A DNA stretch of 64,000 nucleotides from Candidatus Nomurabacteria bacterium (GTDB lineage: Bacteria; Patescibacteriota; Saccharimonadia; JAGOAT01). Shown piece after piece: positions 8,365 to 63,664 of the stretch (the stretch's first letter is position 1; each line of letters begins with the position of its first letter). The position numbers and the translations under genes are program-made. The stretch lies in assembly GCA_020639315.1 (NCBI GenBank), contig JACKGM010000002.1:286321-350320 (forward strand), in the 5' to 3' direction. Under the pieces are notes generated by a model. The model saw only the letters and a list, made by a program, of their open reading frames with translations. It was not told the DNA's origin and ran no database searches.

Positions 8365-9425
8365 TACTAAAACTTTTTAAGACACAATTTCCCATCATAC
8401 TCTAACCACATCAAAGAGTATGATCGGGCACTATTGGCACCCTCCGTTTTAAGTGTTATAAAATATAACTAATCGTTGTGGTTTGGGGTGAAGTGCCCGA
8501 CCAAGTAATAACCTGGGTCGATTTTGGACTCAAGTTATCTGGTAAGCCTCCTCGACATCCGCCGATGAGGAACCTAGGTCTGCTCCAGAACAGCACTCTG
8601 GAGCACGCCTAGGTCCTCACCTATTACTTACTAACTAGTTTTTGACACGTTAGAAGATTTGGATTGGTTATAGCTTTGGGCTATAACTGGTGCGAGGTGT
8701 GATATCAGTCGATTTGTTTGAGTTCTTGATCAACTTAATCACAATCATTATTTTTCCCTGAAGTTGAATATTCCTTTGCCTAGCATTGAATACTACTTAG
8801 TCTACCGAGGGTAAACTGATAGCACTTGCCCCATTCTCAATCATTTGACTGATTAAGAAAAAATATTCTTTTCTCCTGGTGATAATTCTAGTTTTTAAGA
8901 GCACAACTGCTATTCTCAATCTTGCGATCAAAAATAAAATTGCTCATTTTTCGTAAGCTTGTTACAAAAAGACTAGAGAAATCTTACCTGAAGAGTTTTC
9001 AGAGAGTTCCCTTACTATCATCAGAGTAAGGGGATCTTAAGCTAGGCAAAGGGGGTATAATCCTAGCTTAAGATTCCCCTACTCTTGATTACTGTCCTTG
9101 GGCAGTAAATGATAAATACTGGCGAAGCATCCTACCCCGTTCTAGCCTTGTCAGCCAGGCTATAGCAAAAAGCGATGTTCACGCACGCTTCTATGTAAGC
9201 TAACTGCCTCCTGACACCGACTCAAGGTATATTTCTATACCTATCTAACCCTCCGGGTAGAATCAATGCTATGTATTATCTAGATCGGTAGTCAATCAGG
9301 AGTACTGATCTCAAAACCTATCTAGGTAAGGAAATTTGATTTGGCTTATGAATTGTAAAAGAACCTTATTAAACTTGATCTTGTCAAGCTCAACGTTTCG
9401 CTGATGATTTAAACTTTCATCATGG
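8310..9425 (-). ncRNA. candidate ~1.1-kb structured non-coding RNA (unclassified)
   Basis: No ORF >=60 aa in any frame. Minus-strand promoter-like TTGACA (9458-9453), 17-nt spacer, TACGAT (9435-9430). Terminator at 8310-8364. Several 9-25-bp hairpins lie at 8394-8424, 8424-8500, 8567-8618, 8666-8688 and 9022-9087. No known RNA family recognised. Confidence 0.25.
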
Positions 9426-9672
9426 CTCTATCGTAGCAAAGCATTAGCATAATGTCAACACTTTTGTAGTAATAAATGTTACATAATCTGTACCTATATC
9501 TTATCTATATAATATGATTATCACTTTTCAATAGTTATACCAGTATAATATCGTTGTTATAATATATACATTATTTGCCATCTAAACCTTCTGTACCCCT
9601 ATTGCTATCGTATCCCTCTCGCGCTATCATCCCCTTCCCCCTTAAGGTCACTCTTGTATTAGACTTGTTCCT

Positions 9673-9836
9673 TATAGCAAACTCAAAACAAAACCGGACA
9701 ATTTGAGCTGTACTATAGAGAACTAGAAAGGTAGTTATTCTTAAGAGCCATATCCATAGATATGGTGAGTAAGAAAACTAGCTTTATAGACTCTAGAGTT
9801 GGGTCAAAAGTCTGGTTTTGTTTTTAACTTGCTATA
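9673..9836. mobile_element. MITE-A copy (164 bp, long imperfect palindrome)
   Basis: Ends are TATAGCAAACTCAAAACAAAACC and GGTTTTGTTTTTAACTTGCTATA. The two ~80-bp arms are mutually complementary around a central CCATATC-CATA-GATATGG hairpin. Near-identical copies at 43360 and 58728. Confidence 0.8.
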
Positions 9837-9989
9837 ACTAAGGTTTTCGGTCCCAAACCACCTACTTTGAAATATAATAAATCTTTTCACTTCATCACCT
9901 TAATTTTGTTAGGGCTCTTTACGAAAAGGCTATTCTAGTCTCAAGCTAGACAATTTTATGCTCAAAAATTATTGGGGAACAAGTCTATT

Positions 9990-10150
9990 AACCCTGTTGC
10001 CATATAAACTTGCGAGGTCAAAGCTGATGATTTTTATTCCAGACTAGCAAAACATGACAAAGCATAACAGGAGTTACGCTGCGAAGTGTTTTGCTAGTCT
10101 GGGGCAAAAATGGCACTTTTGAAGCCGTGAGGTTATATGGCAACAGGGTT
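9990..10150. mobile_element. MITE-B copy (161 bp)
   Basis: 17-bp perfect TIRs AACCCTGTTGCCATATA / TATATGGCAACAGGGTT. Inner inverted repeat CCAGACTAGCAAAACA. Flanked by ATT/ATT 3-bp direct repeats (9987-9989, 10151-10153). Confidence 0.85.
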
Positions 10151-10200
10151 ATTGTCATCCTCCGAACTTCAGAGAACTTACAGGTATCCAGAGCATTGTC

Positions 10201-11419: not shown

Positions 11420-11482
11420 TTCGGGGTCAGACCCCGAACTCGACCTTGCTAACAGATATAAATCGTCGGGGTCTGACCCCGA
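11420..11482. repeat. REPIN-like doublet R1
   Basis: TCGGGGTCAGACCCCGA, spacer with AACAGATATAAA, then TCGGGGTCTGACCCCGA. Differs by 1 nt from R2. Confidence 0.85.
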
Positions 11483-11537
11483 CTTGTATTTTTTTTAGAC
11501 ACCATGGCCTACTCTTGTAACTACTCTTGTAATCTAC

Positions 11538-11798
11538 TTAACCGTATAGCTGCGAGTGTGTTCCTATCAAAGCAAATATGATTATTTCCTCTGACTCTCT
11601 ATAGTATAGAGCTCGCAAGTCTCCTGATATATTAATACTATAATAACTAGCAAATCTTCCCTTTAGTGGATGTAGTCTCAAAATTGGATTTACTGGATCA
11701 ATCAAAAACAGTCTTAATCGTTGATCAAATTGAACTTGTTGTTTGGCTGGTAATTTTTGATATTGTTGCTTAAACTTTTTGTCATATTTAATAATCAT
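11538..11798 (-). CDS. type II toxin, RelE/YafQ-family mRNA interferase
   Basis: 86 aa. Contains ...LHPLKGRFASYYSINISGDLRALYY...LIGTHSQLY, typical of YafQ/RelE toxins. Overlaps the upstream antitoxin gene by 4 nt. Confidence 0.75.
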   Translation of the reverse strand: MIIKYDKKFKQQYQKLPAKQQVQFDQRLRLFLIDPVNPILRLHPLKGRFASYYSINISGDLRALYYRESEEIIIFALIGTHSQLYG

Positions 11799-12064
11799 GA
11801 CTTCAGGTCTTGTAGGAAATCCTCAACATTATCAAATGCCGAGCTGATTTGACCGTCTTCCCTATCTCTCTCCACTTGAGCAATCTTCTCCTCGAGCCCT
11901 ATGCTCATCGGTTCTGGAACATATATCTCAATATGCCTAGTCACAACCACTTGTTTTAGATAGCTATTAATTAAGCTACTGAGTGTAATCCCAGCGTCCT
12001 TAGCGAGCTGTTGAGCAGCCCTCTTGGTATCATCATCTGTTTTGATAGTAATTACTTGGCTCAT
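11795..12064 (-). CDS. type II antitoxin, RelB/DinJ-like ribbon-helix-helix
   Basis: The likely start MSQVITIKTDDDTKRAAQQLAKDAGITLSSLINSYLKQ (ATG at 12064) is an RHH-type N-terminus. The ORF-track start at 12121 runs into repeat-adjacent sequence. Confidence 0.7.
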   Translation of the reverse strand: MSQVITIKTDDDTKRAAQQLAKDAGITLSSLINSYLKQVVVTRHIEIYVPEPMSIGLEEKIAQVERDREDGQISSAFDNVEDFLQDLKS

Positions 12065-12138
12065 AATACTAAATATATACGTAGTATTACATATTGTCAA
12101 CCGAGCCCTGCCATAAATCAAAATCTAGAATCATAGAA

Positions 12139-12200
12139 TCGGGGTCTGACCCCGAACTCGACCTTGCTAACAGATATAAATCGTCGGGGTCTGACCCCGA
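12139..12200. repeat. REPIN-like doublet R2
   Basis: Same architecture and near-identical sequence to R1 and R3. Lies ~130 nt upstream of the RAYT-like gene. Confidence 0.85.
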
Positions 12201-12328
12201 CTTGTATAGATTGAAGACTATTATACTTGCAAAATTACTGGGTTTGAGCAACAATGTAACTAACTTTAGTGTTAGACTCAACGATTACTGACTATCGTTG
12301 TCTCTGTAAAATATAATCAATACTAACT

Positions 12329-12979
12329 ATGCCAAATCCAAATACTATTAGACGGTACTATCCTAATACCTTTTACCACTTATACAACCGTGGTAATCAT
12401 AAGTTGCCCATATTCTTTAACCATCAAGAATATTTGAAGTTCTTGGCTATACTGAAGTTTTTATTAACATCAGACAACAAGACGGCTGATTCTCTAAAAA
12501 TATTTGCTAAACCTAGGAGAAAAGAGCAAAATTTTAGCAAGAAAATTGCGTTAGTTAGTTTCGTCTTAATGCCAAACCACTTCCATATGATAATATATGC
12601 AAAAGACCCGAAGGACATAGAGAAATTCATGGGTAGGTTAAGCATAAAATACACTCAAATAGTTAACTCTAATCACAACCTGGTAGGTCGACTCTTCCAG
12701 GGTGTATATAAGGCTAGACCAATATTATCAGAAATTGACCTGACTAACACTTCTGCTTATATACACCTAAACCCAAACGAACTCACTCCTGATAATTCAG
12801 ATTATTATCTTTCCTACCCCTATTCGAGTCTGTCCAAAAACCATACTACATTAGGGGTTATCAATTTTGATTTACTCACCGATAAGGCGGATATATCACT
12901 AATTCAATATCATCAGTATTTATTGAATAAATCAAAAAATTTCGTTGAAATGCAAATGATTAAAAAACATGGTATCTAA
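12329..12979 (+). CDS. REP-associated tyrosine transposase (RAYT)-like HUH/Y1 protein (IS200-like fold)
   Basis: 216 aa. N-terminal FYHLYNRGNHKLPIF, HUH motif LMPNHFHMII and tyrosine motif SAYIHLNP. No tnpB partner. Flanked by REPIN-like doublets on both sides. Confidence 0.8.
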   Translation: MPNPNTIRRYYPNTFYHLYNRGNHKLPIFFNHQEYLKFLAILKFLLTSDNKTADSLKIFAKPRRKEQNFSKKIALVSFVLMPNHFHMIIYAKDPKDIEKFMGRLSIKYTQIVNSNHNLVGRLFQGVYKARPILSEIDLTNTSAYIHLNPNELTPDNSDYYLSYPYSSLSKNHTTLGVINFDLLTDKADISLIQYHQYLLNKSKNFVEMQMIKKHGI

Positions 12980-13026
12980 ACTTCTGAGGTGACCAAACTA
13001 AGCTATAAGTTCTAGAGAATAGTCTT

Positions 13027-13110
13027 CCTGACTTCGTGACTTCGGGGTCTGACCCCGAACTCGACCTTGCTAACAGATATAAATCGTCGGGGTCTGACCC
13101 CGAAGTCAGG
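13027..13110. repeat. REPIN-like doublet R3 (extended outer stem)
   Basis: Core as in R1/R2, with an additional complementary CCTGACTTCG (13027-13036) / CGAAGTCAGG (13101-13110). Sits between convergent gene ends. Confidence 0.85.
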
Positions 13111-13437: not shown

Positions 13438-16400
13438 TTAATTCTTAGAATAGTCCTCTTGTCTACTCTTAAGACCAATCAACCAAACTAGGCTAGCGAT
13501 TGCTACTGCAACCAAGATAATAGTGAGGATACCAGCTCCGGTCTTGGGTAGTTGTTTCACCTTATCGATTAGACTATCTTTTGCTTCTAGATAATCCGGC
13601 ACTCCATTACCATCTTTGTCAACAAAACTCTTAGAATCAGTAGGGTTAGTACCGTTTTGCTCTTCGACATAGTCGGGTACTCCGTCACCATCGGTATCGA
13701 GATAATCATCTGGGTCATTGGGATCGGTGCCCTGCTGATTTTCAACGTAGTCAGGCACTCCGTCACCGTCAGTATCAAGGAAGTCGTCCGGATCATTGGG
13801 ATCAGTCCCCTGCTCTTGTTCGACTACATCAGGCACTCCGTCACCATCGGTATCAATCCCTTCCTGATAATCAGGGATACCATTGTTATTTTCGTCTACA
13901 AAATCATCAGGGTCGTCAGGGTTAGTACCGTTTTGCTCTTCGACATAGTCGGGCACTCCATCGCCGTCAGTATCAAGGAAGTCAGTAGGATCGCTAGGAT
14001 CAGTACCCTGCTCTTCTTCAACATAGTCAGGCACCAAGTCACCATCAGTATCTGGATAGCTGTCTGGGTCACTAGGGTCTGTACCCTCCTGAATCTCTAC
14101 ATAATCAGGTACTCCGTCACCGTCGGTATCAAGGAAGTCATCAGGGTCACTCGGGTCTGTGCCCTCCGATACTTCGACATAGTCGGGTACTTCATCACCA
14201 TCATTATCAGGGTAACTACTAGAGTCATAGGGGTTTGTACCTGCAACTACTTCGATGCTGTTTGGCACACCATCTTGATCGCTATCTAAAAAATCATTAG
14301 GGTCATTAGGGTTAGTACCCTCTTGAATTTCAACATAATCAGGTACACCATCACCGTCGGTATCAAGAAAATCATCAGGATCATTGGGGTCTGTACCCTC
14401 TTGAATCTCGATTGAATCCGGTACCCCATCCCCATCAGTATCTGGCCCATCACCAGGGTCATTTGGATTATATGGATCTGTACCATCGACTAATTCTTGG
14501 TAATCCGAGATACCATCATTATCACTATCTAGGAAGTCGTTAGAGTCGCTAGGATCAGTACCCTCAGTCTCTTCTACATAATCAGGCACCCCGTCACCGT
14601 CAGTATCCAAGAAGTCATCGGGATCATTGGGATCTGTGCCCTGTTGTAGTTCAACATAATCAGGAACCCCATCACCATCGCTGTCAACAAAACTATCCGG
14701 GTTGTTTGGATCTGTTCCGTCAATGATTTCAACATAATCTGGTACCCCGTCGCCGTCAGAATCAGGATAGCTTATAGAATCATAGGGATCAGTTCCTTCC
14801 TGCTCTTCGATATAGTTAGGCACCCCGTCACCGTCAGTATCCAAGAAGTCATCGGGATCATTGGGATCTGTGCCCTGTTGTAGTTCAACATAATCCGGAA
14901 CTCCATCACCATCAGTATCAGTGGCTTCGATTACTTGAAAATCTACATAGTCATAATTGTTTCTGAAACCTACATCAATCTGTTCAATCGTATCGAGATA
15001 GCCATAGTTGGTCAAAAATTGACCTGCGTTAACACCTATATCAGCTACCAATATAAGCTCAGCTTGAGCCGAAGTAACCAAGCTTGGAATTGACCAGGTT
15101 AAACTACCCTGATCAAAACTTCCATCAGTGACTTGTATGTCTGCTACTGTTAGCCCTGTAGGCAAACTGTCCTTGATCACAATACTGGTAGCATCATTGT
15201 CCCCGATGTTATTAACAACAATCTTATATACCACCTGACCACCTTCCTGAAGATTGCTCCTGATATCTTGATCATCGATTACCTTAGTCACTTCCAAGTC
15301 AGTTACTACAGGTACGACTCCTGTGGTAAAAGCGATCAAATCATTATCATTGAGATAATTATTATCATCTTGATCAAAACCTAAGAGACTAGCAGAATTA
15401 ATCACCTCTTGACCATTAGCTGCGTCAATATTGACAGTAATATCAAGTGTAGCTGTCGCAGCTGAAGCCAAACTTGGAATTTGCCAGATACCAGTAGCTG
15501 AGTCATAACTGCCGACCGAAGGGTTGGCACTGACAAAGCTTACCCCGCTAGGCAAGTCATCATTGATCATTAGCCCTGTAGCACCAATACTCCCTAGATT
15601 GTCTACTATAATCTGATAAGTCAGACTATCATTTTGATTGAATCCGCTATTGTCAAAGTCGATTGTTTTGAAGACTGCGATATCAGTCAGCATTGGCTCA
15701 ACACCGACCGTGAAGCTTGCACCATCTGAATCATTACTATAGTCGATATCGATTTGATCTAAGCTATCTAAGTAAGCTAGATTATCAAGCTGACTATTGA
15801 GGCTAGCATTGATGGTAGCTGTAATCACCAAACTCTCTTGACCATTGGCTGCCAAGCTAGCAAACTGCCACTGACCAGTCACCGGATCATAGCTACCTGA
15901 GCTAGTGGTGGCCGAAACAAAGCTCAGACCAGCTGGCAATTGGTCAATAATCGTTAGGTTGGTAGCCGATTGAGTAGTCTGATTGGTTGCAACTACTTGA
16001 TAAGTAATAATCTGACTAGTGGCCAGCTCTGCTCCACTATTCGGATAATCAATATTCTTGATCACTGCAACATCAGTCAGGACGGGAGTCGTCCCAACGG
16101 TGAACTGAATAGTGTCATTGTCGTTAGCAGAGTTGGGGTCGACTAGATTGGTGGCTACGGCTGTAATCTCACCATAGTTGTCGACTGCTTGGCCTAGGCT
16201 AGCATTGATAGTAGCTGTAATCCTGAGCTGAGTATTACTGTAAGCTGCCAGGCTAGAAACGCTCCAGTCCCCAGTGGCCTGATTGTAGCTACCAGTATCT
16301 GGAGTAGCCGAGACGAAGCTTAGTCCAGCTGGCAAAAGGTCACTAACCACGATATTGTTAGCTGTCTGATCTCCATAATTTTCTAGATTGACGATATAGA

Positions 16401-24547: not shown

Positions 24548-24612
24548 TGCGGGGTCTGACCCCGCACTTGACCCTTTTAACAGATATAAACTTGCGGGGT
24601 CTGACCCCGCAA
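24548..24612. repeat. REPIN-like doublet R4
   Basis: TTGCGGGGTCTGACCCCGCA...AACAGATATAAA...TTGCGGGGTCTGACCCCGCAA. The outer stem bases changed in a compensatory way relative to the other copies. Confidence 0.85.
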
Positions 24613-24625
24613 TGGGTTTTTTGGA

Positions 24626-25651
24626 TCAATCTTCGCTAGAGTTTTGAGGCAATAAAGCTCGAGAATTACCGATCTGGATAGCTAGCTTATCATGATCTTT
24701 GATTGATGACTCAAAAGCTCGCTGAGCGTTACCAAGGTGCTTCCCTGTCAACTGTAAATTGTCCCCGAGCTTACCTGACTGCGTAGCAATTGCCGAAATC
24801 GAAGCAATAATCTGCTTGGCCTTCTCTTCTATCTTCTCTCCCTCCATAGCTAGTAGTACCGTTTGCAAAAAATAATAAAATGAGTTTGGTGACACCATAA
24901 ATACTCTCTGGTCCACCCCATATTGCTGCAAATCAGTATCACTCAAAATATGATAATAAATGTTTTCACTGGGAATATACATCATGGCAAAATCAACAGT
25001 CCCCTCATCAGGTAGGATATACTTTTTGGATATTGAACGGATATGCACTTTGACGTCTTTAGCAAAATCTTTCAAGCTCTGCCCCGAATCTCCAGAATCA
25101 GCCTTCATAGCCTTAGTAAAGTTTTCCAAAGGAAATTTGCTATCAATCGGGATTAATCCATTCTTGGTCCTGATCACTGCATCGACTTTGACCCCCGAAC
25201 GAAATCCGTATTGCAAACTAAAGCTCCTCAAGGGCAACATTTGCGTCAAAAGGTCTTTCATCACCTGCTCACCAATATTACCTCGCAGCTTTGGTGACCT
25301 CAAGAAGTCTTGCAATTCCTTCATATTGCGACCAATCTCACTAAACTTGCCGACTTCTCTACTCAGATCCGAGTAAGCTTTAGCAGCATTGTTAAGCCGA
25401 TCTTGCATTTGACGCTGATTATCTGCTATCGAACGGTTGATATTGTCCAAATCAGCCTTCAATAGATTGACGGTACTATCATTTCTAATCTGTTCTCTTA
25501 ATACCTCGATTGACTTGGATTGAAAAATCATCTGCCTCAACACCAACCCAACTATCCCGATCAAAACCACAATCAAGGCCAATACCAAAATCTCCATCTG
25601 CTTATTATAAATCATAAGCATTATTCCCCCAAATATTAACCCTGTTGCCAT
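24626..25651 (-). CDS. rmuC: DNA recombination protein RmuC
   Basis: N-terminal TM, coiled coil and C-terminal RmuC-type domain (AMMYIPSENIYY, VSPNSFYYFL). The first 14 nt of the track ORF lie inside the MITE-B TIR, so the true start is probably an internal Met (25621 to 25597). Confidence 0.8.
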   Translation of the reverse strand: MATGLIFGGIMLMIYNKQMEILVLALIVVLIGIVGLVLRQMIFQSKSIEVLREQIRNDSTVNLLKADLDNINRSIADNQRQMQDRLNNAAKAYSDLSREVGKFSEIGRNMKELQDFLRSPKLRGNIGEQVMKDLLTQMLPLRSFSLQYGFRSGVKVDAVIRTKNGLIPIDSKFPLENFTKAMKADSGDSGQSLKDFAKDVKVHIRSISKKYILPDEGTVDFAMMYIPSENIYYHILSDTDLQQYGVDQRVFMVSPNSFYYFLQTVLLAMEGEKIEEKAKQIIASISAIATQSGKLGDNLQLTGKHLGNAQRAFESSIKDHDKLAIQIGNSRALLPQNSSED

Positions 25652-25798
25652 ATAACCTCACGGCTTCAAAACTGCCATTTTTGCCCCAGACTAGCAAAAC
25701 ACTTCGCAGCGTAACTCCTGTTGTGCTTTGTCGTGTTTTGCTAGTCTGGAATAAAAATCATCAGCTTTGACCTCGCAAGTTTATATGGCAACAGGGTT
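25638..25798. mobile_element. MITE-B copy (161 bp, reverse orientation) between divergent rmuC and tyrS
   Basis: Same TIRs as the other copies. ATT/ATT TSD at 25635-25637 and 25799-25801. Confidence 0.85.
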
Positions 25799-25838
25799 AT
25801 TGAAAGAAACCTCATCAGATGATAAGCTTATATCAGAT

Positions 25839-27845: not shown

Positions 27846-27900
27846 ACTATAGTCTATTTTACCCCAAACATTCCAGCCTGAAAATAGCCCTATAGCCGCC

Positions 27901-27952
27901 TATAGCAAGCTCAAAACAAAACCGGACAATTTGAGCTGTACTATAGAGAACT
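27901..27952. mobile_element. truncated MITE-A (left ~50 bp only)
   Basis: TATAGCAAGCTCAAAACAAAACCGGACAATTTGAGCTGTACTATAGAGAACT is identical to the left arm of full copies, after which similarity is lost. Confidence 0.7.
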
Positions 27953-28063
27953 ATAGCCCCCGTAAAACAAAACCTGTTTGTTTTGGGTGATTAGATTATC
28001 GATCTAGAATTGTCGGATGCAAAAATCCTATTTATATCATGCTATAATTGCTATAATAAAATC

Positions 28064-29591: not shown

Positions 29592-29655
29592 TTCGGGGTC
29601 TGACCCCGAACCCGACCTATATAACAGATATAAATGGTCGGGGTCTGACCCCGAA
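29592..29655. repeat. REPIN-like doublet R5
   Basis: TTCGGGGTCTGACCCCGAA...AACAGATATAAA...TCGGGGTCTGACCCCGAAG. Confidence 0.85.
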
Positions 29656-31414: not shown

Positions 31415-31502
31415 AATCTAATATAGAGTATATATGAGATTATATTAGATTACAAGAGATTAACGCCAAAAAAACTTGATTAATCTACAAATGGAACTAA
31501 GA

Positions 31503-31686
31503 TATAGCAAGCTCAAAACAAAATCCAATTCCCTGACTAAGATAATAGAGAACCAGTAGTTGAGTTCTTCTACTGAATCATATCCATGATATGGTGAAGG
31601 AGAAAACTCAGTCTAATGGACTCTAGTGTCTAGTCAGGAATTGTGATTGATAGAAATATCTGATTTTGTTTTTAACTTGCTGTATA
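31503..31686. mobile_element. MITE-A subfamily-2 copy (184 bp), uninterrupted
   Basis: Ends are TATAGCAAGCTCAAAACAAAATC and GATTTTGTTTTTAACTTGCTGTATA. Collinear with the 50071-50419 copy except for the MITE-B insertion there. Confidence 0.8.
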
Positions 31687-38538: not shown

Positions 38539-38666
38539 CGATAATGGTAACTTTGAGGATCTTAAAACTAGGTTTGTTGTCAACCTAAACTTTAGGTCTT
38601 TTAGATACCGTATATAATACAAACAGATGGACGGTTTTGTTTTGAGTATGCTATACAACTTAGGGC

Positions 38667-43138: not shown

Positions 43139-43359
43139 GTGTCTAAGCCCATGCTCTAAACTATACTACTCTAGTCTAGAACCTTTACAACCTGGTCTTA
43201 AGGTATCAAAAGACTGCAATCGCCAAATCATTACAGATACTACTGTGGAGCAACCAAGGCCTATAACCAGAAACGCTACCTTAATAGATAGAGATAACTA
43301 CTAAATCTAATGGCTAAAGGAATAATATATCTAATGACATCAGCGGTATCGGGCTTGGT

Positions 43360-43523
43360 TATAGCAAGTTAAAAACAAAACCAGCCTTTTGACCCAACTC
43401 TAGAGTCTATAAAGCTAGTTTTCTTACTCACCATATCTATGGATATGGCTCTTAAGAAGAACTACCTTTCTAGTTCTCTATAGTACAGCTCAAATTGTCC
43501 GGTTTTGTTTTTAACTTGCTATA
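43360..43523. mobile_element. MITE-A copy (164 bp, reverse orientation)
   Basis: Reverse complement is ~95% identical by eye to 9673-9836. It directly abuts REPIN R6. Confidence 0.8.
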
Positions 43524-43524
43524 C

Positions 43525-43589
43525 TTTCGGGGTCAGACCCCGTCATTTTATATCTGTTGGAAGGGTTCAGTACGGGGTCTGACCCCGAA
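43525..43589. repeat. REPIN-like doublet R6 (reverse orientation)
   Basis: TTCGGGGTCAGACCCCGTC...TTTATATCTGTT...TACGGGGTCTGACCCCGAA. Confidence 0.85.
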
Positions 43590-48745: not shown

Positions 48746-49826
48746 CCTAGATTCTATTTCCAAATGCAACCTTAGCTAAGTCTAACTCACTATTAGGGTT
48801 AGAAGCAAGCCAATCGTAAACCTCTTGAGGTGTATGCCACCCTAGTCTTTTTCTAGGCTTGTTATTAAGCTCCCAGGCTATATCATCTAGCTCTTGTTGG
48901 GTTAGTCCCCTAATATCACTACGCTTAGGGAGATACGCCCTAAGTTGTCCGTTGATATTCTCGTTAGCTCCTCTCTGCCAAGAGCTATATGGATCAGCAA
49001 AGTATACCTCTATACCAATAGCTTCTGTGATTCTCTCGTGTTTAGTGAACTCAGTACCATTATCAAAGGTGATGGTATGGGCAACAAGACCTCTAAGCCC
49101 GTCTATTACTGCATTGGCTGTCTCCTCTGCTGTCTTACGGTCTAGTTTAGTAAATACTACTAAACTACTAATTCTCTCGTTTACAGTGTTAATAGCTTGT
49201 TTATGTAGGTATAAGACACTATCACCCTCCCAATCTCCTAGTCTGGTTCTTTGATTTACAACTTCTGGTCTTTTATGGATAGATACTCGATTTGGTATCT
49301 TAGACCTATGAGATGACCTACCTTGATTCTTGGTTCTCTTTTTCTTGCCTTGTCTAAGATATTGATAGAGCTTTTCCTCTTTAGCCCAAGAGCTAGTATA
49401 TATCCAGTTATAGATAGTTTCAGCAGAGACTGATGGGTGTCCTTCTTTCTTTAATCTACCTGAGATAGTTACTGGATTCCAGCCCTTCTGTAGGCAGTCT
49501 ACTACTCGACTGCGTAAACGATGATTAACTGGGTTATCTAAGATTGGTATCTGTCTAGATTCTTGTCGGTTCTCTTCATAGCTAGATTGAGCTATCCAGG
49601 TATGATAGATACCTTTACCATCAAGCCCTCTTTTGATCTCTCTACCTATAGTAGATTTATCTTTACCAATTCGCTTTGCTATTTGATTATTTGTATAATT
49701 GTCTTGGAGTAAGACTTCTATCTTACCCCGTTCTGCAGCCGTTAGGTGACTCATGCAATCCTTTCGTTTAATTGTATGTATTATTCTAACGGTTGCATTT
49801 GATATTGGAACTATGGGATCGCCATA
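48746..49826 (-). mobile_element. IS30-family insertion sequence (1081 bp)
   Basis: Imperfect 26-bp IRs (CCTAGATTCTATTTCCAAATGCAACC and GGTTGCATTTGATATTGGAACTATGG, 18/26). 3-bp TSD GAT at 48743-48745 and 49827-49829. Confidence 0.85.
48747..49754 (-). CDS. IS30-family DDE transposase
   Basis: N-terminal HTH (LTAAERGKIEVLL..NNQIAKRIGKDKSTIGREI), DWEGD, TFDNGTEF, YFADPYSSWQRGANEN. The start is placed at MSHL (49754). The track start at 49862 lies outside the IS. Confidence 0.9.
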   Translation of the reverse strand: MSHLTAAERGKIEVLLQDNYTNNQIAKRIGKDKSTIGREIKRGLDGKGIYHTWIAQSSYEENRQESRQIPILDNPVNHRLRSRVVDCLQKGWNPVTISGRLKKEGHPSVSAETIYNWIYTSSWAKEEKLYQYLRQGKKKRTKNQGRSSHRSKIPNRVSIHKRPEVVNQRTRLGDWEGDSVLYLHKQAINTVNERISSLVVFTKLDRKTAEETANAVIDGLRGLVAHTITFDNGTEFTKHERITEAIGIEVYFADPYSSWQRGANENINGQLRAYLPKRSDIRGLTQQELDDIAWELNNKPRKRLGWHTPQEVYDWLASNPNSELDLAKVAFGNRI

Positions 49827-50062
49827 TAATTTTTCTGATTCATAAGAGCAATAATTGGCCACCGACCAGGCTGCTTCATACTACTACTCTGATAGTCCAT
49901 CATCCCATACCCGAGGCCTACTCCTCCACCCATACCTTTGTAGATTGTCGGTTGACAATCCGGTGCATATTGCCGAATCAAAGCATCTACCTTACGCAAG
50001 TCAGACTCTCGCTCTCCAGTCTTGGCAAAGTATTCTTCGGCAGTCTTAGCTTCAATTTTCAT
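49827..50062 (-). pseudogene. N-terminal fragment of the IS30-split DUF1801 gene
   Basis: MKIEAKTAEEYFAKTGERESDLRKVDALIRQYAP...WPIIALMNQKNYMA. Joins in frame to the fragment at 48745. Confidence 0.75.
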
Positions 50063-50070
50063 TGTTATAT

Positions 50071-50419
50071 TATACAGCAAGTTAAAAACAAAATCAGATA
50101 TTTCTATTAATCACAATAACCCTGTTGCCATATAACCTCACGGCTTCAAAACTGCCATTTTTGCCCCAGACTAGCAAAACACTTCGCAGCGTAACTCCTG
50201 TTATGCTTTGTCGTGTTTTGGTATTCTGGAATAAAAAATCATCAGCTTTGACCTCGCAAGTTTATATGGCAACAGGGTTAATTCCTGACTAGACTCTAGA
50301 GTCCATTAGACTGAGTTTTCTCCTTCACCATATCATGGATATGATTCAGTAGAAGAACTCAACTACTGGTTCTCTATTATCTTAGTCAGGGAATTGGATT
50401 TTGTTTTGAGCTTGCTATA
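50071..50419. mobile_element. MITE-A subfamily-2 copy (reverse) carrying a nested MITE-B
   Basis: Collinear with the reverse complement of 31503-31686, except for a 162-bp insertion plus 3-bp duplication. Confidence 0.85.
50118..50279. mobile_element. MITE-B copy (162 bp) nested in MITE-A
   Basis: Same TIRs as the other copies. AAT/AAT TSD at 50115-50117 and 50280-50282. The uninterrupted target CACAATTCCTG is seen in the 31503 copy. Confidence 0.9.
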
Positions 50420-53419: not shown

Positions 53420-53485
53420 CTTCGGGGTCTGACCCCGAAACAGGTACTGCCAACAGATATAAATCGACGGGGTCTGACCCCGAAG
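53420..53485. repeat. REPIN-like doublet R7
   Basis: CTTCGGGGTCTGACCCCGAAA...AACAGATATAAA...GACGGGGTCTGACCCCGAAG. Confidence 0.85.
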
Positions 53486-56505: not shown

Positions 56506-56570
56506 CTTCGGGGTCAGACCCCGTCAATTTATATCTGTTAGCAACCCCTGGTTCGGGGTCAGACCCCGTC
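56506..56570. repeat. REPIN-like doublet R8 (reverse orientation)
   Basis: CTTCGGGGTCAGACCCCGTC...TTTATATCTGTT...TTCGGGGTCAGACCCCGTCAG. Confidence 0.85.
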
Positions 56571-58688: not shown

Positions 58689-58727
58689 CCCAGTATTTGA
58701 ATTGAAGTATTCAGAGAATGGCAGACC

Positions 58728-58888
58728 TATAGCAAGCTCAAAGCAAAACCGGACAATTTGAGCTGTACTATAGAGAACTAGAAAGGTAGTTCTTCTTAAG
58801 AGCCATATCCATAGATATGGTGAGTAAGAAAACTAGCTTTATAGACTCTAGAGTTGGGTCAAAAGTCTGGTTTTGGTTTTAACTTGCT
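58728..58888. mobile_element. MITE-A copy
   Basis: Near-identical to 9673-9836. Confidence 0.8.
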
Positions 58889-58940
58889 ATGGGATCAAGA
58901 ATTTATTTGCGACACAAGACAAAGTGTTAGTTCAATAAAA

Positions 58941-63451: not shown

Positions 63452-63664
63452 GCTCCTTATTATAACAGAGCAAAGCAGCAGAGACTGTCAACTCTATTAG
63501 ACTTGTTCCCCAATAAGGTTTCTGGCACCATATAGCAAGTTAAAAACAAAATCAGATTTCTAGATTCTAGCAAACATTAGGGCTATTTGATTAGTCTAAT
63601 ATGGTTACTCTGGGTGGTGAGTAAATATGAAATCTAATATGCAAAAATGCTTTTTAGCGATCTG

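Follow-up and report, generated by a model that had tools for sequence, protein, structure and literature searches.

Locus and Its Constituents

The subject of this analysis is a 64-kb stretch of contig JACKGM010000002.1 (hereafter the window, i.e., the whole stretch of DNA analyzed), in which a gene coding for a Y1/HUH endonuclease resides among dispersed doublets of a perfect palindrome. The first-pass annotation, made from the sequence alone, had described it as a RAYT-like (REP-associated tyrosine transposase, REP standing for repetitive extragenic palindrome) gene surrounded by its own REPIN-like repeats in a genome resembling those of the candidate phyla radiation (CPR). The last point agrees with the identity of the host, a member of Candidatus Saccharibacteria (CPR). 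Each doublet comprises two palindromes, H1 and H2, with a conserved box between them; six doublets carry the box on the plus strand, and #6 and #8 are reversed. The immediate neighbors of the Y1 gene are a RelB/YafQ pair and a gene for a 102-aa protein of unknown function. The components of the locus and the other doublets are listed below; all repeat counts and coordinates refer to the 64-kb window.

11422–11481, plus strand: doublet A, with trpS on one side and the toxin gene on the other; H1 has A as its central base
11538–12064, minus strand: YafQ-type toxin gene (11538–11798; Pfam YafQ_toxin, 35 bits) and RelB-type antitoxin gene (11795–12064; Pfam RelB, 27.3 bits)
12140–12199, plus strand: doublet B, in a divergent promoter region, 130 nt ahead of the Y1 start codon
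12329–12979, plus strand: open reading frame of the Y1/HUH endonuclease, 216 aa, with the Pfam domain Y1_Tnp, class 2, subclass 2.1-like; a promoter-like site precedes it at 12288–12317
13043–13102, plus strand: doublet C, beginning 64 nt after the Y1 stop codon
24550–24609, plus strand: doublet #4, between two tandem minus-strand genes; flanks G...C, not T...A
29594–29653, plus strand: doublet #5, between a gene for a 513-aa protein and tRNA-Trp
43528–43587, minus strand: doublet #6, between convergent genes; outer flanks paired (ttt/aaa), local flanks unpaired
53423–53482, plus strand: doublet #7, between the divergent aspS and DUF1801 genes; the site of the Y1 gene in the relatives L003 and L135 (see below)
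56509–56568, minus strand: doublet #8, in a divergent promoter region

Three of the eight doublets (the identical A, B, and C) thus bracket the Y1 gene and the YafQ/RelB pair. The third of them had initially been placed at 13027, about 50 nt downstream of the gene; its core actually starts at 13043, 64 nt past the stop codon. As annotated, there is no tnpB near the Y1 gene. Look-ups of the exact sequences of the 102-aa neighbor, TrpS, the toxin, and the DUF1801 protein returned nothing new.

Architecture of the Palindromic Doublets

The 15-mer palindrome CGGGGTCWGACCCCG has 16 matches without a single mismatch, the expectation from 100 dinucleotide-preserving shuffles of the window being 0.00, and these 16 sites form the eight doublets counted at first sight. 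Every doublet is 60 bp long, with the palindrome starts 45 nt apart, and its layout is fixed: H1 (15 nt), a linker of 14 nt, the box AACAGATATAAA (12 nt), a linker of 4 nt, and H2 (15 nt). The box, already recognized as an invariant 12-mer of the spacer, occurs once per doublet and has no exact copy elsewhere in the window. The intergenic location of the doublets was likewise upheld (8/8 between open reading frames; three divergent, two convergent, and three tandem regions). Their density amounts to one per 8 kb, and six palindromes lie less than 900 nt from the Y1 gene. No RNA family in Rfam matches the doublets.

Neither the core GGTCNGACC outside the doublets nor solo or clearly decayed copies of the palindrome were found in the window. 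A search tolerating up to three mismatches added one doubtful site only, at 2535. This site (2535–2560, TTGGGTCTAACCCCGAGGGGTCTGG), located in a convergent intergenic region, may be the one degenerate remnant of a palindrome pair that the window contains.

Conservation within the doublets is sharply partitioned. Since A, B, and C are identical, the variation per column was calculated for six independent doublets: 17 of the 18 linker columns are variable vs. 0 of the 40 columns of the modules, i.e., H1, box, and H2 (Fisher p = 9e-14), and the mean pairwise difference of the linkers is 0.53. Doublet A equals doublet B from H1 through 8 nt past H2 (ACTTGTAT), and the two share 76 identical nt. 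The central bases of the two palindromes are T/T in six of the eight doublets, so the palindromes are mostly direct by that criterion. The outer flanks of doublet C add 6 further base pairs (tgactt/aagtca). The positions directly to the left of this doublet, 13027–13042, contain two nearly identical 8-nt units in tandem (CCTGACTT CGTGACTT), the distal one being a perfect complement of the right flank of doublet C, AAGTCAGG; this near-duplication may represent an insertion or excision footprint.

The Y1 Protein and Its Class

The coding sequence at 12329–12979 does specify a 216-aa protein with the FYHLYNRGN, PNHFHMII, and SAYIHLNP motifs noticed previously. The Y1/HUH fold found support in the match to Pfam PF01797 (Y1_Tnp; residues 70–146), scoring 31.6 bits against a cut-off of 23. 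The NCBIfam search at E ≤ 1 revealed a sole match, REP_Tyr_transpos (NF047646), with 38.8 bits, below its curated cut-off of 80, and no IS200 model. In the PDB, the single Y1 sequence had no match and a profile was needed: the family profile built from 53 sequences retrieved TnpA-REP of E. coli (4ER8) with E = 2.5e-6 and TnpA of ISDra2 with E = 1e-3. The AlphaFold2 model (pLDDT 92, pTM 0.88) gave a similar picture, its best PDB match in Foldseek being 4er8_A (E = 6e-6, target TM 0.68), with TnpA of IS608 and ISDra2 at about 4e-3 or weaker.

Invariant among 52 homologues are H17, N20, MPNHFH81–86, G120, and Y144, comprising the HUH motif (H84-F-H86) and the single candidate catalytic tyrosine, Y144. 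The motifs PNHFHM, LFQG, YIHLNP, and YPYSSL include the class-2 Y---NP signature, not the Y---Q of IS200. By motifs only, the protein corresponds to the second signature of subclass 2.1 (NH[YF]H, FQ, Y[IV]HLNP, SS tail; Table 1 in PMC6006769), a subclass equated with Group 1 of Bertels and, according to the authors, with the TIRYT proteins of Di Nocera (PMC6006769). A C-terminal helix-turn-helix (HTH) domain (Bac_DnaA_C, HTH_23, HTH_28) was not detected, Y1_Tnp being the only Pfam domain at E ≤ 1; the C-terminus of the AlphaFold2 model is formed by helices 180–187 and 191–214. In subgroup 2.1.2, the C-terminal tail is heterogeneous (PMC6006769). The family is large: the profile collects 5,672 clusters (50% identity) at E ≤ 1e-30 and 27,961 at E ≤ 1e-10.

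No GTAG or GTGG tag is present at the hairpin feet of the eight doublets, where the flanks are tt/aa, tg/ca, or aagt. The score below the NCBIfam cut-off together with the lack of a GTAG tag indicates that the protein is not a canonical RAYT, a category comprising subclasses 2.2 and 2.5 and Groups 2 and 3 of Bertels. Judging from its sequence, it is a class-2 Y1 enzyme that fits the subclass 2.1/TIRYT/Group-1 type, and it is not an IS200 TnpA. Of the initial identification, the RAYT-like rather than IS200 affinity was therefore retained (the better match to 4ER8 and the Y---NP motif) in the sense of a TnpA-REP-like class-2 Y1 protein, and the canonical RAYT identity was not.

Pairing of Genes and Repeats across Lineages

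The idea that gene and repeats constitute a cognate pair received support from the three doublets bracketing the gene and from the relatives: of nine related Y1 genes examined, from CPR lineages and metagenome bins of Actinomycetota, eight are adjoined by palindromes of the GGWCNGWCC type, each gene having its own. These cases are as follows:

L125 and L135, sister species with a Y1 protein 62% identical: doublet layout as in the window, with a sequence of its own
L126, related CPR Y1 gene: AGGGTCSGACCCT on each side
L133, related CPR Y1 gene: CTGAAGGACGGTCCTTCAG upstream, within, and downstream
L134, two different Y1 genes: AGGGTCWGACCCT doublets for one and ACGAGGTCCGACCTCGT for the other, each upstream, within, and downstream
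L056 and L089, high-GC metagenome bins of Actinomycetes: identical CGGGGTCWGACCCCG doublets abutting the Y1 homologue
L127, related CPR Y1 gene: no palindromes seen beside the gene

The sister species is particularly instructive. In L135 (AspRS 83% identical), five doublets are found in 21.7 kb, with exactly the 15-14-12-4-15 spacing but palindromes of the form CGAGGTCTRACCTYG and the box AACAGATYAAAA; the changes in the stem, G3A and C13T, are compensatory. In 22 kb examined from a more distant relative (AspRS 72% identical), there are no palindromes and no Y1 gene. A metagenome scan for the box followed by H2 yielded one contig only, suggesting that the version with the 12-mer is lineage-specific. 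At the same time, the occurrence of the same palindrome beside related Y1 genes of distant phyla suggests that recognition follows a conserved code.

The known TIRYT genes are flanked by GGGGWSAS inverted repeats; certain families among these are self-complementary, recur in the genome, and come as dimers (PMC3733652). Every palindrome of the window reads GGGGTCAG on one strand and fits this consensus. Overall, the notion that the repeats of the window are cognate to the Y1 gene is supported.

Several further observations concern the distribution of the palindrome. Among the matches listed of the genome-collection scan (L005–L123), doublets or clusters of CGGGGTCWGACCCCG occur in many high-GC bacteria (Thermoleophilia/Gaiellaceae, Actinomycetes bins, Massilia/Duganella, Parapusillimonas, Acidobacteriota, and Planctomycetota), and no Saccharibacteria are among them. 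Clusters next to a Y1 homologue span 3370–4229 in L056 and 2459–3050 in L089. One doublet family of the Thermoleophilia type has a 35-nt spacer with paired inner flanks (GAACG...CGTTC). A spacer box common to the window family and the high-GC doublets was sought and not found, the enrichment being dominated by one Thermoleophilia family. Finally, a cognate palindrome or doublet lies within the Y1 coding sequence itself in L133 (10172) and L134 (10444–10477 and 19683); in-gene REP insertions have been reported for subclass 2.4 only (Quentin et al., PMC6006769).

The locus is best read, with a probability of roughly 0.7, as a REPtron/TIRtron-type system, i.e., one class-2 Y1 HUH endonuclease together with its cognate palindromic doublets of about 60–67 bp. 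Invariant modules combined with diverged linkers fit the pattern of a replicating population in which H1, the box, and H2 are needed in cis.

The same conservation can also be viewed from the side of the host. The doublets might be regulatory or structural elements (terminators, mRNA stabilizers, or sites for host proteins) under selection at each locus, with the Y1 protein as a domesticated partner or a mere neighbor and no transposition involved. Identity of the 40 module positions in all copies with linkers near saturation, as well as the lack of decayed or solo copies in the window, would be in line with this reading; read on the bottom strand, H2 and the GATTTATATC behind it resemble a terminator by score, the location of copies A, C, #4, and #6 would allow them to end an upstream gene in this way, and RAYTs have been argued to be co-opted by the host (Bertels et al., PMC5581495). 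However, B, #7, and #8 lie in divergent promoter regions with no transcript end, and #5 has the wrong orientation. Moreover, the palindromes and the box change concertedly between the sister species, in step with a Y1 protein 62% identical, the doublet sites are not conserved between the two species, and the two Y1 genes coexisting in the L134 genome each possess a palindrome family of their own. Host elements selected site by site are hence an unlikely explanation. Transcription termination as such is only partly compatible with the data and inapplicable to the three copies in divergent promoter regions; the terminator-like combination of H2 and the T-rich box may be a side effect in four copies.

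Two other readings of the box were rejected. An outward promoter in the 12-mer (TATAAA) would face a gene start in four of the eight copies, and its spacing to the −35-like hexamer is wrong. For a site of integration host factor (IHF), no match to WATCAANNNNTTR was evident by eye.

One Long Hairpin or Two Local Hairpins

When folded as single-stranded DNA (ssDNA), all eight doublets have a long hairpin with the box in its loop as the minimum-energy structure, with free energies from −19 to −28 kcal/mol and z-scores from −4.5 to −8.3. The folding accords with the REPIN architecture proposed at the outset; the self-complementarity of the palindromes and their mostly direct orientation by the central base count against it in the strict sense. 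The outer pairing cttcgggg...ccccgaag, attributed earlier to most copies, is exact in C and #7, partial in #5 and #6, and absent from A, B, and #8.

A covariation test was carried out on 14 doublets from the window and the sister species. The long-hairpin model pairs 91.6% of the cells vs. 87.3% in the model with two hairpins. In the long model, the column pair 8–65 is GC in 12 sequences and AU in two, with none unpaired; column 8 is the one discriminating position, and the sister-species copies s1 and s2 are mismatched there in the local model. The outer flanks pair at the first position in 11 of the 14 sequences, and the local flanks of H2 pair in seven. The doublet at 24550 (G...C) co-varies on all four flanks, so that it alone cannot separate the long hairpin from the local ones. 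Covariation in the sister-species sequences thus slightly favors the long hairpin, and a dyad of the whole doublet is the preferred though unproven reading. Recognition of double-stranded DNA by a protein dimer would likewise produce symmetric changes.

Gene Position and Doublet Sites in Related Strains

The same 216-aa Y1 protein is encoded beside trpS in the window as well as in L001 and L002, and in L003 (98–99% DNA identity) its gene follows aspS. The junction in L003 is a hybrid doublet composed of H1 and the linker of #7, the box, and then TCGT, H2, and the right flank of doublet B, which places the crossover within the 15 nt AACAGATATAAATCG. The identity common to #7 and B at this point is 15 nt, or 31–32 nt with one single-nucleotide polymorphism (SNP) allowed. 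In L135, the order is DUF1801/d1/Y1/d2/DUF5996/d3/aspS (d1–d3 denoting doublets), i.e., the Y1 gene occupies the same aspS–DUF1801 interval and has the same orientation relative to aspS as in L003. Because the order in L003 recurs in the sister species, in an independent NCBI assembly, a chimeric join in L003 is unlikely. Removal of the L003 cassette by exchange at the two boxes predicts exactly doublet #7 of the window. The doublets flanking the Y1 gene in L135 differ by 2 nt. As far as these sequences indicate, the Y1 gene itself appears to relocate between strains, a behavior more like that of an insertion sequence (IS) than of a “domesticated” gene.

Two more units are bounded by doublets. 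The YafQ/RelB pair forms a cassette between doublets A and B, and L002 is devoid of it: the trpS flank is followed there by a single doublet and the Y1 gene (a 718-bp difference), this doublet having the left side from A and the right flank from B. A true indel, a deletion by RecA between the 76 identical nt, or a mis-join could account for the difference. In L135, a DUF5996 gene without a homologue in the window lies beside Y1 between two doublets of the same orientation (8894–9841); it is the third single-gene unit bounded by doublets, after the toxin–antitoxin pair and Y1. The doublet sites differ, too: an intact doublet is missing from the L135 orthologue of site #8, and doublet d4 of L135 lacks a counterpart in the window. 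The linkers are more similar within a genome (4–10/14) than between genomes (3–7/14), as expected if each genome amplified copies of its own.

Two readings of particular sites were dropped in the course of this comparison. That the sister species retained an orthologue of doublet #7 and converted its modules in situ was not supported, the linker similarity between the species being at background, and a doublet-mediated inversion in L124 was abandoned with the joined segment turning out to be an IS30-like insertion sequence.

Relocation of the gene raises the question of whether the Y1 gene with its two flanking doublets could be an autonomous IS200-like IS, the solo doublets being its derivatives of the miniature inverted-repeat transposable element (MITE) type or excision scars. 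The different loci of the gene in near-identical strains and the identity (window) or near-identity (2 nt apart in L135) of the gene-flanking copies would be expected then; Group 1 is also the most IS-like of the RAYT groups, with 6.3% duplicates and some members on plasmids (Bertels et al., PMC5581495). Still, a single Y1 copy is seen per assembly and the other six doublets are gene-less, the 216-aa protein with its class-2 Y---NP motif matches no IS200 model at E ≤ 1, and tnpB is missing. Furthermore, L003 has a hybrid doublet at its junction instead of an intact end that was transposed, and in place of distinct left and right ends the gene is flanked by direct repeats of the complete two-hairpin unit. 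An autonomous IS of this kind is therefore highly unlikely.

It was also considered that the rearrangements are assembly artefacts or products of RecA recombination between 60-bp repeats, with the Y1 protein lacking a current role and the repeats being relics. The contigs L002, L003, L004, and L124 are short, with doublets at their start or end, the coverage of L124 is 2.4x, and the 76 nt shared by A and B suffice for a deletion by homologous recombination. Nevertheless, the order of Y1 and aspS in L003 is matched by the independent assembly of the sister species, and the identity at its crossover makes a poor RecA substrate and is marginal for a mis-join at k = 31. An intact Y1 open reading frame with all catalytic residues conserved and the integrity of every doublet do not look like relics either, so this explanation is rather improbable.

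Proposed Mechanism and Its Weak Points

In the favored REPtron/TIRtron-type system, the two palindromes with the GGTCWGACC core would fold on ssDNA either into two small stem-loops or, more likely, into one hairpin of 15–22 bp with the invariant AACAGATATAAA exposed in the loop. Judged from 4ER8 and IS608, the enzyme would bind the stem-loops and then cut and rejoin the DNA by means of Tyr144 and a metal site at His84/His86. A requirement for H1, box, and H2 in cis would explain why these modules are invariant and the 18 linker positions have diverged by ~53%. The doublets would spread as non-autonomous units and, in addition, may serve as sites of strand exchange moving whole genes, such as the Y1 gene and, probably, the toxin–antitoxin pair; the hybrid doublet suggests that the exchange point is within or beside the 12-mer box. 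What the sequences show is the anatomy of the repeats, the class of the protein, the association of gene and repeats across lineages, and the differing position of the gene in related genomes; mobility of the doublets, DNA binding, cleavage, and a causal role of the Y1 enzyme rather than host recombination in the rearrangements are inferences.

Several points weigh against this interpretation. A simple model of exchange at the box leaves the identical linkers of A, B, and C unexplained; their identity would call for gene conversion or for recent seeding by a master copy next to the gene. The same rearrangements could result from RecA acting on the 60-bp repeats, and selection for a host function at each site equally predicts perfect conservation of every copy. 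The differences between strains come from short metagenome contigs, possibly mis-joined at repeats: L002 is especially open to mis-joining because A and B share 76 nt, and the L003 arrangement alone is independently backed by synteny with the sister species. The T/T central bases in six of the eight doublets imply a T–T mismatch in the long hairpin, and the self-complementarity of the window palindromes speaks against a strict REPIN reading. Lastly, no REP-like repeats were found near subclass 2.1 genes in a previous survey (Quentin et al., PMC6006769).

A more speculative view, to which we assign a low probability, is that the doublets act as folded single-strand recombination sites for the HUH enzyme, resembling integron attC sites, and that exchange inside the 12-mer shuffles single-gene cassettes. 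The analogy is limited to a few traits: the inverted repeats could act as folded single strands, the toxin–antitoxin pair, Y1, and DUF5996 are each bounded by sites of the same orientation, and a hybrid site after relocation fits exchange inside the site. In contrast to integrons, the enzyme is an HUH nuclease and not a tyrosine recombinase, no attI site or Pc promoter platform exists here, most doublets are situated between core genes, and cassette exchange would be deduced from three cases only.

Comparison with Known Systems

The REPtron/TIRtron-type system of the window is best placed among the TIRtrons (subclass 2.1, Group 1), and in its working it resembles REPtron/REPIN systems. It shares with TIRYT/TIRtron elements (PMC3733652) the protein signature (NH[YF]H, FQ, Y[IV]HLNP, SS tail) at a length of about 220–240 aa, the flanking of the gene by GGGGWSAS-containing repeats (here GGGGTCAG), and the low gene copy number. 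It differs from them in the saccharibacterial (CPR) host, unsampled in those studies, in the lack of a Pfam-detectable C-terminal HTH (two helices are modeled within residues 180–214), in the rigid 15-14-12-4-15 doublet with an invariant asymmetric 12-mer, and in the REP-like density of one doublet per 8 kb.

The RAYT/REPIN and REPtron systems, reportedly described by Bertels and Rainey in 2011, Ton-Hoang in 2012, and Messing in 2012 (PDB 4ER8), include TnpA-REP of E. coli with its bacterial interspersed mosaic elements (BIMEs). As in the window, a single Y1 gene resides there between its own palindromic repeats, which are intergenic, dispersed, and paired in a way allowing for one long hairpin; conserved motifs between two REPs are known from the BIMEs of E. 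coli, too, and 4ER8 is the best match of the Y1 protein by both structure and profile. Unlike in those systems, the protein scores 38.8 vs. 80 bits on the NCBIfam RayT equivalog, the 5′ GT[AG]G tag is missing from the hairpin foot, the repeats are perfect 15-mer palindromes, mostly direct by the central base, and the gene changes its locus between strains.

With TnpA of the IS200/IS605 family (IS608, ISDra2) and its MITE-like derivatives, the system has the HUH/Y1 fold in common. Subterminal hairpins would be the recognition elements in both, no target duplication is expected, and the hairpin–~30 nt–hairpin spacing resembles a right-end/left-end circle junction. The differences are the Y---NP motif instead of Y---Q, a protein longer by ~65 aa, the lack of tnpB, the single copy, the “ends” represented by the same palindrome, and the weaker PDB matches (E of about 1e-3 vs. 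2.5e-6 for 4ER8). TnpA proteins of subclass 1.1, to which this family belongs, consist of the core of about 150 aa alone, are multicopy, and are often accompanied by tnpB.

Other Repeats and Elements in the Window

Besides the doublets, the window harbors an IS30-like insertion sequence of 1,071 bp (48746–49816; open reading frame 48747–49862, minus strand) with HTH_38 and rve domains, which interrupts a DUF1801-like gene. The insertion leaves an 81-codon DUF1801-like fragment at 49817–50062; the gene is intact in L135 (15922–16353). In L124, the same IS is located 12 nt from a #6-like doublet, the left half of which differs, so the IS30-like element may target or rearrange doublets.

Two more families of intergenic repeats are present:

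Second family, dispersed: 9671–9836, 27899–27953, 31501–31684, 38625–38655, 43358–43523, 50072–50108, 50389–50419, 58726–58891, 63530–63566
Third family, three copies, two of them 98% identical: 9986–10151, 25634–25799, 50114–50280

The second family contains TATAGCAAGYTMAAAACAAAA and its complement together with the promoter-like TTGTTTTTAACTTGCTATA; two 163-nt copies are 98% identical, and one copy abuts doublet #6. Members of the third family are MITE-like, ~165 nt long, with long internal inverted repeats (ATTTTTGCCCCAGACTAGCAAAACAC...GTGTTTTGCTAGTCTGG...). Taken together, these families make the small genome unusually rich in intergenic repeats.

Between 13438 and 20235 on the minus strand, a giant 2,265-aa surface-type protein is encoded, featuring CLIPPER, SdrD_B, and TSP3-like repeats. 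Its gene includes a 78-nt tandem array (13604–14968), the length of which varies by strain; the protein has 2,187 aa in GCA_020428505.1.

Biological Significance

Genomes of CPR bacteria, including Saccharibacteria, are ~1 Mb in size and tightly packed. In spite of the tiny genome, the density of REP-like repeats here exceeds that of the REPs in E. coli. In the literature, no report was found linking RAYT/REP to Saccharibacteria or Patescibacteria or giving the sequence of the palindrome. The new elements of the picture are, accordingly, the host group, a clear repeat partner for a subclass reported without REPs (PMC6006769), a rigid doublet with an invariant box, and natural variants localizing the exchange point.

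Subclass 2.1 is the largest and most widespread group of class-2 Y1 proteins, with no known function, and the present system ties a protein of the subclass-2.1 type to a sharply defined DNA partner. With the probable exchange point confined to 15 nt by the hybrid doublet, short oligonucleotides would allow a direct test of binding and cleavage. If the tentative attC-like view were true, the cassettes would include the Y1 enzyme's own gene, the toxin–antitoxin pair, and DUF5996, and subclass 2.1 would represent a widespread cassette-shuffling system recognizing a GGWCNGWCC stem-loop that is conserved from the CPR to Actinomycetota.

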